Source: an uncultured Trueperaceae bacterium (GTDB lineage: Bacteria; Deinococcota; Deinococci; Deinococcales; Trueperaceae). From it: a stretch of DNA of 64,000 nucleotides. The position numbers and the translations under genes were made by a program. The notes beneath the pieces were generated by a model. It was not told the origin of the DNA, did no database searches, and was given only the letters and a program-made list of their open reading frames with translations. Of the stretch, positions 56,074 through 59,043 are shown one piece after another (position 1 is the first letter of the stretch; each line of letters opens with the position of its first letter). The stretch lies in the NCBI GenBank assembly GCA_963727505.1, contig CAVSGP010000009.1:160001-224000 (forward strand), read 5' to 3'.

Positions 56074-56685
56074 ATGCTAGCGCACGCCTTTGGTGGAGGC
56101 TGGATCGAGCTGATCGTCGGCCCCATGTTCAGCGGTAAGTCCGAGGAGCTCATCCGGCGCGTCAACCGCGCGCTCATCGCCAGGCAACGGGTCCAGGTGT
56201 TCAAGCCCGCGATCGACGATCGTTACGTGCCGGAGGCGGTTGCCTCGCACGACGGTCGCTCCCTGAAGGCGATCCCGGTCGACGACACCGCCGGCGTCCG
56301 GCATTTGCTCGCCGACGAGACGCAGGTGGTGGCGGTGGACGAGGGCCAGTTCTTCGACGACGCGCTGGTGGGGCTGGCGCTCGAGCTCGCCGATGCCGGC
56401 AAGCGCGTCATCGTGGCCGGGCTCGACCTCGACTTCCGGGCAGAGCCGTTCGGCCCCATGCCTACCCTGCTGGCGCAGGCCGAGGTGGTGGAGAAGCTGA
56501 CGGCGATCTGCTCGTGCGGACGCGCCGCGACGCGCACGCAGCGTCTCATCGGCGGGCGCCCGGCCCACTACGACGATCCGGTCATCCTGGTGGGGGCGTC
56601 GGAGCGATACGAACCGCGCTGCCGCAGCTGCCACGTCGTTCTCAAGGAAGCGCGCGACACCCCGCTGTTCGACCTGGCATCGTAG
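56074..56685 (+). CDS. tdk: Thymidine kinase
   Basis: 'GPMFSGKS', 'FKP.ID.RY', 'DEGQF', 'GLDLDFR.EPF', 'AICSCG', 'YEPRCRSC'. Confidence 0.97.
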
Positions 56686-56688
56686 CGC

Positions 56689-57981
56689 TCAGGGCTGGAT
56701 GCGGCTGCCGTCGCGGGGGAAGGCGCGCGCGAAGCGGACGTTGGGGATGCCCAGCAGCAGGGCCGTGAGGCGCTCGGCGCCGGCCGCGAAGCCGCCGTGG
56801 GGCGGCATGCCGTGGCGGAACACGTCGAGGTAGCCGCGGAAGGCTTCCGGGTCCATGTGCCGCTTCTCCAGCTCTCCGAGCAGCATGGCGTGCTCGTGCA
56901 CGCGCTGCCCTCCGGAGGTGATCTCCACGCCGCGGAACAGCAGGTCGACGCCGCGCGTCAGCTCGCTGTCGGGCTCGGGGTAGGTGTAGAAGGGGCGCGC
57001 CGCCTGCGGGAACTTGGTGACGAAGACGAAGTCGCTGCCGTGCTCCTCGCGCGCCCAGCGGCCCAGCAGGCGCTCGGCCTCGGGGTCGAGGTCCTTCCCC
57101 CCGGTGCGGTGACCGTAGCGCTCGGCCACGAGCTCGCGGGCCTCGAGGAGGGGGATGCGCGGGATGGCCGGGTCCAGCGGGGGCGCCGCCGCCTCCATGA
57201 GCTCGAGCTGGGGAGCGCAGCGCTCGGCCACGCGCGCCATCATCGCCTTGAACAGACCCTCCTGCAGGTCCATCACCTCTCCCTCGTCCCGGATGAAGCC
57301 GAACTCCACGTCGAGCGACAGGTACTCCGCCAGGTGCCGGGTGGTGTGGCTGGGTTCGGCGCGGAACACCGGGGCGACCTCGTAGACACGTTCGTACACC
57401 GCGACCATGATCTGCTTGTAGAGCTGCGGCGATTGCGCCAGGTAGGCGCGCTTGCCGTAGTAATCGACCTCGAAGAGGTTGGCGCCGCTCTCGGCGCCCG
57501 CCGCCACCAGCTTGGGGGTGAAGATCTCGGTGAAGTCGCGGGCATCGAGGTAGGCGCGGAAGGCGCTCACCAGCTCGGCCTGCACCTTCAGCGCCGCCTG
57601 CGCCTTGAGCCCGCGGACGGTCATGTGGCGGTACTCCAGGAGGGTCTCGGGGTTGGCGTGCCACTCCTCCTTGGAGATCTCCACCGGGGGCGGGGTCAAC
57701 GCGCGGCTCAAGACCTCGAGCTCGCTCGCTTGCACCTCCACGCCGCCGGGCGCACGGTCGTTGGCGACCACGCTGCCGCGCACGCGCACGCAGCTCTCGT
57801 GCAACGGGAGCTCGGTGTGCTTGAACACGCACTGCGCCAGGCCGCTCCGGTCGCGCAGCAGCAGGAACTGGATGCCGCCCAGATCACGTCGGTTGTGCAC
57901 CCAGCCCTGCAGGGTCACGGTCTCGCCCACCTGGGTCGGCAGCGCGCGTGTGAGCGTACGCTCGTCGGTCAAGGTCTCCAT
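56689..57981 (-). CDS. aspS: Non-discriminating (archaeal-type) aspartyl-tRNA synthetase
   Basis: OB-fold 'GWVH.RRDLGG..F..LRDRSG', 'LAQSPQLYKQ', 'FRAE...RHL.EY', 'EITSGGQR', 'GMPPHGG..GAER'; ~430 aa with no GAD insert. Confidence 0.93.
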   Translation of the reverse strand: METLTDERTLTRALPTQVGETVTLQGWVHNRRDLGGIQFLLLRDRSGLAQCVFKHTELPLHESCVRVRGSVVANDRAPGGVEVQASELEVLSRALTPPPVEISKEEWHANPETLLEYRHMTVRGLKAQAALKVQAELVSAFRAYLDARDFTEIFTPKLVAAGAESGANLFEVDYYGKRAYLAQSPQLYKQIMVAVYERVYEVAPVFRAEPSHTTRHLAEYLSLDVEFGFIRDEGEVMDLQEGLFKAMMARVAERCAPQLELMEAAAPPLDPAIPRIPLLEARELVAERYGHRTGGKDLDPEAERLLGRWAREEHGSDFVFVTKFPQAARPFYTYPEPDSELTRGVDLLFRGVEITSGGQRVHEHAMLLGELEKRHMDPEAFRGYLDVFRHGMPPHGGFAAGAERLTALLLGIPNVRFARAFPRDGSRIQP

Positions 57982-57994
57982 CCTACGCTCCTCC

Positions 57995-58027
57995 AAGAAA
58001 AACACCCCGAGGGGAACCTCGGGGTGT
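57995..58027 (-). terminator. Attenuator terminator in the aspS leader
   Basis: ACACCCCGAGG-ttcc-CCTCGGGGTGT-TTTTCTT just upstream of the aspS RBS. Confidence 0.85.
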
Positions 58028-58047
58028 CCAATGGGCCGAACCGCGGC

Positions 58048-58110
58048 CTACGCCCCGAGCCACCTCGCGGGGGAATTGTCGTCAACCAGAAGGTTCCGGG
58101 GCGCACACAT
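58048..58110 (-). CDS. Putative aspS leader peptide MCAPRNLLVDDNSPARWLGA
   Basis: 20 codons with an N...DDN cluster, between the promoter and the terminator. Confidence 0.65.
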   Translation of the reverse strand: MCAPRNLLVDDNSPARWLGA

Positions 58111-58120
58111 CTTGGGCGGT

Positions 58121-58149
58121 AATCTAGCAGGCGTCCGCGGGCGTGTCAA
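58121..58149 (-). promoter_or_regulatory. sigma70 promoter of the aspS leader
   Basis: TTGACA-17 nt-TAGATT. Confidence 0.85.
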
Positions 58150-58208
58150 CGGTGGGAGCGTCGGGACGCGCCGGCCCGGCTGCGGACGGCCGCGCCTGGG
58201 ATGAAGCG

Positions 58209-58598
58209 TTAGCCCAGCATCGCGCGCAGCAGCGCCACGTGCTCGCGGTCCTGGGGCCGGTCGAGGCGCTCCTTGAAAGCGAGCAGCGAACGCAGGTCGA
58301 CGCAGGGCCAGCCGTCCACCTGCTCGGCGGTGTCGATCAGGGCGTCGACGTCGTCACCCAGCCAGCCTCCCCAGATCTCGACCTCGGGCTCGGGTCGGAC
58401 CACCGGGTCGCGCAGCCCGCGCTCCGGCGCAGCCATCGTGCAGGCGACGCGCCAGGCTTCGCCTCGCGCCAGCACGTCGAGGTCGCGGGCCCCGCCGATC
58501 AACCCGCGGAGCAACAACGCGCCGCTACCGTGCACGACGTAGGCCCCTTCCGGGAGTGCCAGCGTCGCGAGCTTCGCGGCAGCCTCCTCGCGCGTCAT
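58209..58598 (-). CDS. Small nucleotidyltransferase-fold hypothetical protein
   Basis: 'VHGSGAL...G....DLDV' and C-terminal 'K..L.RPQD..H'. Confidence 0.6.
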   Translation of the reverse strand: MTREEAAAKLATLALPEGAYVVHGSGALLLRGLIGGARDLDVLARGEAWRVACTMAAPERGLRDPVVRPEPEVEIWGGWLGDDVDALIDTAEQVDGWPCVDLRSLLAFKERLDRPQDREHVALLRAMLG

Positions 58599-58608
58599 CC
58601 GCGCGTCC

Positions 58609-59043
58609 TCAAGCGTCCGTCAGCGCGGCCGCCACGAACACAGCCCGTACCAGTGGAGCGAGCGTGCTGGTAGCCGCGAATTCATCGGGCGTCAACCAGG
58701 CGTGGGCATCGTGCTCGGCGGTGCGGACCACCTCGCCGGGCTCGGCGTCCGCGCGGTAGACCACCACCACCATGGGTTCACCGGCGCGACGCGCCTGATA
58801 GGCGGTGATGGGCCGGGAGCGCACCTGGACCTGCAGACCGCACTCCTCGCTGATCTCGCGCGCCACCGCCGCGGCGGGGTCCTCGCCCAGTTGCAGGCGG
58901 CCCGAGAGGGTCTCCCACAGCCCGGGCCCGGCGTCGCGCGTGGCGGAGCGGCGCATGGCCAGCACCCGGCCGTCGCGGAAGACCGCGGCGGCCACTGCGA
59001 CCACGAAGTGCTCGGTGATCTCGCCGTCGCTTCGTTGCCTCAC
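58609..59043 (-). CDS. NUDIX hydrolase
   Basis: Nudix box 'GRLQLGEDPAAAVAREISEECG', 'EHDAHAW'. Confidence 0.88.
   Translation of the reverse strand: MRQRSDGEITEHFVVAVAAAVFRDGRVLAMRRSATRDAGPGLWETLSGRLQLGEDPAAAVAREISEECGLQVQVRSRPITAYQARRAGEPMVVVVYRADAEPGEVVRTAEHDAHAWLTPDEFAATSTLAPLVRAVFVAAALTDA

Follow-up and report, generated by a model that had tools for sequence, protein, structure and literature searches.

Ribosome-mediated (trp-type) transcription attenuation is familiar from the E. coli trp attenuator (trpL) and from the his, leu, thr, ilv and pheA leaders, and Rfam holds models for such elements under the names Trp_leader, His_leader, Leu_leader and Thr_leader. A gene for an aminoacyl-tRNA synthetase (aaRS) can be governed in the same manner, as E. 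coli pheST is by the attenuator of the pheM leader peptide (Rfam Phe_leader), and in Firmicutes the genes aspS, asnS and gatCAB are controlled by T-box riboswitches. Here we analyse the region upstream of aspS2, a gene for an archaeal-type non-discriminating aspartyl-tRNA synthetase (AspRS2), in a 64,000-nucleotide stretch of contig CAVSGP010000009.1 from an uncultured Trueperaceae bacterium of the Deinococcota; this whole stretch is called the window, and positions are counted from its first letter. Judged from the sequence and its relatives, the best reading of this region, and one that we consider quite probable, is a ribosome-mediated transcription attenuator of a monocistronic aspS2, carried on a leaderless or near-leaderless transcript whose short open reading frame (ORF) contains a cluster of Asn and Asp (N/D) codons.

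The closest described counterpart belongs to Deinococcus deserti, for which de Groot et al. 2014, Genome Biol Evol (PMC4007540), list 14 leaderless putative leader peptides and propose leader-peptide control of seven aaRS genes. One of the peptides, Deide_10019, has 14 residues (MFAALANNNDNDPH), is assigned in Table S9 to 'Aspartyl-tRNA synthetase, non-discriminating', and has its transcription start site (TSS) mapped at the A of the leader ATG. In the parts of that paper available to us, it occupies one supplementary-table row, as a putative element, with neither a structure model nor a comparison beyond Deinococcus; no other account of this leader was found in the literature within reach of our search, subscription journals lying outside its coverage. 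The element is thus not new as a kind: it has already been listed as putative in one species, contrary to the initial annotation of the window, which knew of no described attenuator of this sort, and its mechanism is classical. The further remark in that annotation, that aaRS genes are more often under T-box control, has to be set beside the leader-peptide-controlled aaRS genes already proposed in D. deserti. What is new here is a Trueperaceae member with a family-specific antiterminator.

Like Deide_10019, the window's leader has a -10 box 6-11 nucleotides (nt) before the ATG, a short N/D-rich ORF of leaderless type straight after that box, and the orthologous non-discriminating AspRS gene downstream (the Deinococcus AspRS2 orthologues are 62-64% identical to the window's). 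The proposed role, transcription attenuation, is also the same, and the Deide_10019 peptide closely resembles the Deinococcus leaders found in this work, for example MSAAQANLNNDPH. On the other hand, the window's leader has 20 codons rather than 14, DDN in place of NNNDND and an ATG 10 nt past the -10 box instead of 7, and its family-specific end, RxLGA, doubles as the antiterminator strand. In two untreated D. deserti libraries, sense reads number 117 and 214 for the leader (45 nt) and 118 and 99 for aspS2 (1290 nt) (PMC4007540); computed from these tables, reads are about 28- and 62-fold denser in the leader than in the gene body, a figure subject to the 5' bias of the libraries. This excess of leader reads fits premature termination. 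The parts of the window's element are as follows.

58144-58149, minus strand: -35 hexamer TTGACA, read from the sequence and part of the best-scoring promoter in a promoter scan
58121-58129, minus strand: extended -10 element, TG-c-TAGATT, with the TG at 58129-58128 and the hexamer at 58126-58121 (10 of 12 matches)
58048-58110, minus strand: 20-codon leader ORF MCAPRNLLVDDNSPARWLGA, ATG at 58110, TAG stop at 58050-58048, read from the sequence and seen in orthologous ORFs
58096-58105, minus strand: possible segment 1, TGCGCCCCGG (codons 2-5), paired to segment 2 in the minimum free energy (MFE) fold
58075-58083, minus strand: putative regulatory codons GAC GAC AAT (Asp-Asp-Asn, codons 10-12), alignment consensus GACGACAAT
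58050-58059, minus strand: segment 2, CTCGGGGCGT, the 5' strand of the antiterminator, from the pairing in an alignment of 19 leaders
58034-58048, minus strand: small hairpin in the spacer from stop codon to terminator, GGCCG-CGGTT-CGGCC, from folding
58002-58027, minus strand: intrinsic terminator hairpin, with 5' arm ACACCCCGAGG at 58027-58017 (segment 3), loop TTCC, and 3' arm CCTCGGGGTGT at 58012-58002 (segment 4)
57995-58001, minus strand: T tract TTTTCTT after the terminator stem, read from the sequence
57989-57994, minus strand: Shine-Dalgarno sequence GGAGGA of aspS2, 7 nt 5' of the ATG, read from the sequence
56689-57981, minus strand: aspS2, ATG at 57981, encoding the 430-residue AspRS2, identified by NCBIfam profile matches

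The initial annotation had placed the promoter, ORF, terminator and ribosome-binding site in this order on the minus strand of 57981-58149, and the sequence bears all of them out. The spacer between the -35 and -10 elements is 17 nt, and the distance of 10 nt from the -10 box to the leader ATG (58110) makes the ORF near-leaderless, with a 5' untranslated region (UTR) of about 3 nt if transcription starts 7 nt past the box. A further Asn codon, AAC, stands at 58095-58093. The GC-rich terminator stem has 11 bp, can be lengthened by two G.U pairs and with this extension reaches -22.8 kcal/mol. Segment 2 takes in the final three sense codons together with the first base of the stop, and 9 of 10 positions pair between CTCGGGGCGT (58059-58050) and ACACCCCGAG (58027-58018), the count and coordinates given before being correct; the 5' arm of the terminator is therefore common to the terminator and the antiterminator. 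A side observation concerns the start codon: when 58111-58120 (minus strand) is compared with loci L005, L006, L007 and L009, an ancestral ATG 7 nt past the -10 box proves to have become AAG in the window and its closest relatives, where the ORF opens at the ATG that follows, whereas L006 retains ATG ATG at the ancestral start.

With trpL-type attenuators the locus shares a short ORF in which codons for the sensed amino acid are clustered, a mutually exclusive antiterminator and terminator with a common strand, and, by our reading, the masking of the antiterminator strand by a ribosome at the stop codon. It differs in its leaderless initiation, which is not led by a Shine-Dalgarno sequence, in having an aaRS gene rather than a biosynthetic operon as its target, in that two amino acids may be read, and in a helix between segments 1 and 2 (the 1:2 pause helix), overlooked in the initial annotation, that lacks covariation support; nor did it match any Rfam leader. 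As in pheST, an aaRS gene would be under leader-peptide attenuation that senses the charged tRNA of its own amino acid. Phylum, sequence and amino acid are different, however, pheM is led by a Shine-Dalgarno sequence, and neither sequence nor model matched between the two.

The comparison of related loci confirms that the leader is real and is kept across the sampled Deinococcota families. An AspRS2 orthologue was present in 40 of 41 related genomes, the window's own included (only paralogues were found in G004, which is 81% complete), and the DNA upstream of all 40 was read with a leader search that used only promoter score, ATG distance and reading frame. A short ORF beginning 6-11 nt past a -10 box was found at 38 of these 40 aspS2 loci, with an identical or one-mismatch -35 hexamer at the same place in 37 of the 38. 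Every one of the 38 ORFs has Asn codons, 36 have at least two N/D codons and 33 have adjacent ones, the exceptions being L005, L014, L017, L024 and L039, so that the conserved D/N codons expected by the initial annotation are indeed there; Asp codons are missing from L014, L034 and L039. A hairpin with a T-rich tail starts 15-38 nt past the stop codon in 34 of the 38 leaders. Among named records the leader occurred at 15 of 15 Deinococcota loci (Trueperaceae metagenome-assembled genomes, Deinococcus spp., Thermus caliditerrae and Meiothermus cerbereus), some of which are of the same species as in the set of 40. By contrast, it was found at 0 of 65 aspS2 loci of Chloroflexota, Actinomycetota, Candidate Phyla Radiation (CPR), Clostridia and archaea, and a promoter-free scan of the same 65 loci for N/D-rich windows gave a single, chance-like match 211-331 nt upstream. 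These 40 and 15 loci, together with the pair counts given below, strongly support the earlier proposal of a leader-peptide attenuator upstream of a non-discriminating aspS.

What the leaders have in common is the N/D cluster and the layout only. The peptides vary by family (..DDN..RxLGA in the window's family, then MxAANNNVNDDPC, MRGLLNNDR, MKCFFNNSADDDN and MLRADDNL), and the D/N positions vary mostly by third-base changes or D/N/E swaps. This pattern bears on the idea that promoter, ORF and terminator make up a small gene in its own right, encoding a micropeptide or small RNA, with aspS2 expressed by leak-through or from another start and no sensing of amino acids, which we judge very improbable. 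In its favour, the C-terminal RxLGA motif is conserved in the window's family, and in D. deserti the leader RNA is far more abundant than the aspS2 body; a second, TEX-enriched TSS at -93 is assigned there to a GATAAT that lies inside the leader ORF and is made of D/N codons (Table S5, PMC4007540). Yet the peptide sequence is not kept between families, and RxLGA coincides with the antiterminator strand, so that constraint on the RNA explains its conservation. In addition, the interval between the T tract and the aspS2 ATG is only 18 nt, too short to hold another promoter, and the element stays tied to aspS2 at 38 of 40 and 15 of 15 loci.

Structure was tested on a MAFFT alignment of the 19 leaders of the window's family. 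The antiterminator helix, formed by segment 2 and the 5' arm of the terminator, has 91.1% of its cells paired; shifting the partner by 1-3 columns lowers this to 26-60%, and on each of five antiterminator measures all 500 shuffles fall short of the alignment. Compensatory changes, which the initial annotation had suggested seeking in a leader alignment, occur in three pairs of the 7-bp main helix. The stop codon adjoins segment 2 directly in all 19 leaders (its TA is invariant), and each terminator folds on its own. In the other families, Deinococcus apart, a model-free fold pairs a G run just past the stop codon with a C run of the terminator 5' arm; in the Deinococcus leaders the same fold around the stop codon gave no clear alternative pairing. 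The 1:2 helix (codons 2-5 against segment 2) appears in the MFE fold of the window and of most relatives. The spacer hairpin is less distinctive: its energy in the window was equalled by 78 of 500 shuffles, and, borderline cases aside, it did not stand above shuffles at the 5% level in any of 16 leaders.

The alternative terminator and antiterminator helices exist independently of translation, and aaRS genes are often T-box controlled or autoregulated. A switch that binds a protein or a tRNA (T-box-like, or AspRS2 autoregulation) could therefore act on the same terminator and antiterminator with the ORF merely incidental, an explanation to which we give hardly any credence. An Rfam covariance scan of 57700-58500, both strands, to E = 10, returned no T-box, a match that the initial annotation had said would refute its own reading; its only matches were sub-threshold and terminator-like, no family attained its gathering score (best match 23 bits against a gathering score of 112), and the Trp, His, Leu, Thr and Phe leader families were not among the matches. 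The control suggested here does resemble a T-box in that uncharged tRNA would raise expression through an antiterminator, but at about 115 nt the leader has roughly half the usual T-box length and would sense through translation instead of direct tRNA binding. Also against such a switch are the spacing of 6-11 nt between -10 box and ATG, found in 38 of 38 leaders, the constant position of the stop codon beside segment 2, the codon-wise variation, and the D. deserti TSS at the leader ATG (PMC4007540).

In the attenuator that we favour, transcription would start at, or a few bases before, the leader AUG, so that a ribosome would load on the nascent leaderless RNA and translate the 20-codon ORF. 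With charged Asn-tRNA(Asn) and Asp-tRNA(Asp) plentiful, it would reach the UAG and cover segment 2 (CUCGGGGCGU, the last codons); segment 3 would then pair with segment 4, the terminator would form and RNA polymerase would halt 18 nt before aspS2. If charged tRNA(Asn), and probably tRNA(Asp), were scarce, the ribosome would stall while its A site holds one of the two GAC codons or the rare AAU, with its front edge a few bases short of segment 2, and the free segment 2 could pair with segment 3 before segment 4 is made, leaving no terminator and allowing transcription of aspS2. The loop would close as the extra AspRS2 raised the supply of Asp-tRNA(Asp) and, for GatCAB, of Asp-tRNA(Asn). The parts themselves, how they are conserved and how the antiterminator pairs are what the sequences show; translation of the ORF, the stalling, the kinetic competition and the physiological signal are the steps that we infer in this scheme, and its geometry can be followed along the ORF. 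The AAU occupies ORF nt 34-36 and segment 2 begins at nt 52, with 15 nt between; a ribosome holding AAU in the A site would cover about 12-15 nt downstream and leave segment 2 just free. Masking the first 48 nt, at a stage before the 3' arm has been transcribed, gives the antiterminator, at -22.2 kcal/mol, and with nt 1-75 masked, as by a ribosome at the stop codon, only the terminator forms. A first stall model, which put the last N/D codon in the A site and masked 15 nt, failed for the short leaders of other families.

Several observations weigh against this attenuator. At full length the MFE structure stays the terminator even with nt 1-48 masked (-37.4 kcal/mol, against -22.2 for the antiterminator lacking the 3' arm); the switch must therefore be kinetic, and read-through would need kinetic trapping. 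Classical attenuators likewise rely on kinetic switching. In the MAFFT register, pairing in the terminator columns reaches only 76.5%, a value that 43 of 500 shuffles attain; we put this down in part to a 3' arm aligned out of register. Column by column, the alignment does not show the 1:2 helix as conserved (56.5% paired, 37-54% when slid). Folding the two conformers, as the initial annotation had advised, did yield both the antiterminator and the terminator, but folding energies in this region do not rise above those of shuffles: the leader MFE is not better (z = -1.55), the antiterminator conformer is matched by 15 of 200 shuffles, and the ORF fold with the 1:2 helix by 29 of 200. For a sequence of 70% GC such as this one, folding energy alone is uninformative. 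The window's leader taken alone has only 4 N/D residues in 20 codons, and since the ATG of its lineage has moved from 7 to 10 nt past the -10 box its transcript may carry a 3-nt 5' UTR.

Not every relative conforms, either. L013 and L020 are without any leader, and without an intergenic region, and the leaders of L014 (one Asn, no Asp) and L019 (poor promoter) are poor; L024 has no terminator hairpin by the criteria used, and the hairpin picked in L019 is weak. The Thermus-type L034 and L038 have very strong hairpins (-30.3 and -28.9 kcal/mol) but no T tract, the sequence continuing instead into CCAAAGC or TCAAACC; either a U run is dispensable for termination at these loci, or control works in another way. 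Finally, four AsnB-family matches over the cut-off occur in the window's genome, so that AspRS2 need not be the sole asparagine route here, and the notion that it is the only one in this organism was rejected.

As for what is sensed, the codons suggest that the leader reads the charging of Asn-tRNA, and probably that of Asp-tRNA as well. The initial annotation claimed that both are sensed; its Asn half agrees with the presence of Asn codons in 38 of 38 leaders, while the Asp codons absent from three keep dual sensing conditional. The Asn codon of DDN is the best-conserved position, the AT of its AAT being invariant in the 19 leaders, and AAT is a rare codon: it makes up 1022 of the 15788 Asn codons of the window's genome (6.5%) against 27 of 36 in the leaders of the family, a comparison weakened by members with low-GC genomes. 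Taking one leader per genus (21 genera), Asn accounts for 41 of 362 residues and Asp for 39 of 362, compared with 1.9% and 5.3% in the window's genome, although kinship inflates any P value. The far greater enrichment of Asn, and the three leaders without Asp, would suit a sensor of Asn alone, in which Asn codons are the sole control point and the Asp codons are tolerated neighbours (GAY and AAY being one base apart) or tune the spacing. We regard this as unlikely, if worth keeping in view. Asp codons are still enriched about twofold over background and in most families are immediate neighbours of the Asn codon (DDN, NDD, NND, DDD); L022 and L024 have GAT where the other leaders of the window's family have AAT; and a non-discriminating AspRS, as the family assignment makes AspRS2, also charges tRNA(Asp).

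A bolder form of the attenuator is tentative, its chances somewhat short of even. The leader would here be a phylum-wide two-input sensor of tRNA-dependent Asn synthesis, reading the end product, Asn-tRNA(Asn), at a deliberately rare AAU and the Asp-tRNA(Asp) precursor pool at adjacent GAY codons, and, as the D. deserti data allow, the T-ending GAYAAT might double as the -10 box of a bypass transcript without the leader ORF. The D/N codons at 58075-58080 (minus strand) spell GACAAT, and GATAAT, a -10-like hexamer, occurs in 6 of 19 relatives; a transcript from such a box would lack the leader start and might bypass attenuation. If the two-input reading were true, aspS2 would be a feedback-controlled committed step, with an attenuator of biosynthetic type on a tRNA synthetase gene.

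The product of aspS2 matches NCBIfam NF003483, aspartate--tRNA(Asn) ligase, with 543.5 bits (cut-off 353) and TIGR00458 with 384.7 bits (cut-off 368.4). Non-discriminating AspRS and GatCAB together form a tRNA-dependent route to asparagine, which is reportedly the only one in Deinococcus radiodurans and Thermus thermophilus. Profile matches in the window's genome identify gatB (502.6 bits), asnS (447.9 bits) and also an aspS of bacterial type, the enzyme set of Deinococcus and Thermus; a profile search of this genome did not find asnA. A conserved Asn/Asp leader would offer a simple control point for the tRNA-dependent route and, across the sampled Deinococcota families, a case from nature of an aaRS gene attenuated through a leaderless leader peptide.

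The layout goes beyond what chance would give. Within 6 kb there are three promoter-like sites, against 0.2 +/- 0.5 in shuffled sequence, and the leader promoter is the best among them. The full composite (a TTG-type -35, a TAnnnT -10, an ATG 5-11 nt after the -10, an ORF of 5-40 codons and, within 70 nt, a terminator at least as stable as -12 kcal/mol) has only five matches on both strands of the 3.26-Mb genome, and three of these precede aspS2, ilvB and leuC. The aspS2 hairpin was not listed by a separate terminator scan, probably because its G.U extension uses up part of the T run. Beyond the window, the composites at C4:59899-59970 (plus strand, L121) and C9:587225-587305 (minus strand, L124) are likewise leaderless short ORFs with terminators, and the genes behind them are ilvB (acetolactate synthase large subunit, 774.9 bits) and leuC (isopropylmalate dehydratase, 714.3 bits), the leuC leader MRIRRRLRVINLWQSVLLQGGGPVRV being Leu-rich. 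The two others, at C4:750876-750944 (plus strand, L122) and C9:701217-701252 (plus strand, L123), precede genes of 298 and 219 residues without an NCBIfam match. Table S9 for D. deserti has leaders for ilvB and leuC too (PMC4007540). For annotation this means that proposed leaderless leaders among the 14 of D. deserti have Trueperaceae counterparts, in this genome at least those of aspS2, ilvB and leuC.

The neighbours of the locus are these.

56074-56685, plus strand: thymidine kinase, profile match to PF00265
58209-58598, minus strand: ORF of 129 residues upstream of the leader
58609-59043: NUDIX gene, which precedes the 129-residue ORF

The gene next to aspS2 is the thymidine kinase, and because it is convergent aspS2 is taken to be monocistronic. 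The 129-residue ORF, which had no Pfam or NCBIfam match, is syntenic with aspS2 in several genera and has a common C-terminal motif, ..LAFKERL.RP.D..H..LL. In L013 and L020, which represent two other genera of the window's family, its homologue extends as far as aspS2, closing with ..TCNN.. immediately ahead of the ATG of that gene; in L013 it lies in one open frame with aspS2 (582 residues). This arrangement may be a fusion, or a remnant of the Asn codons of the leader.

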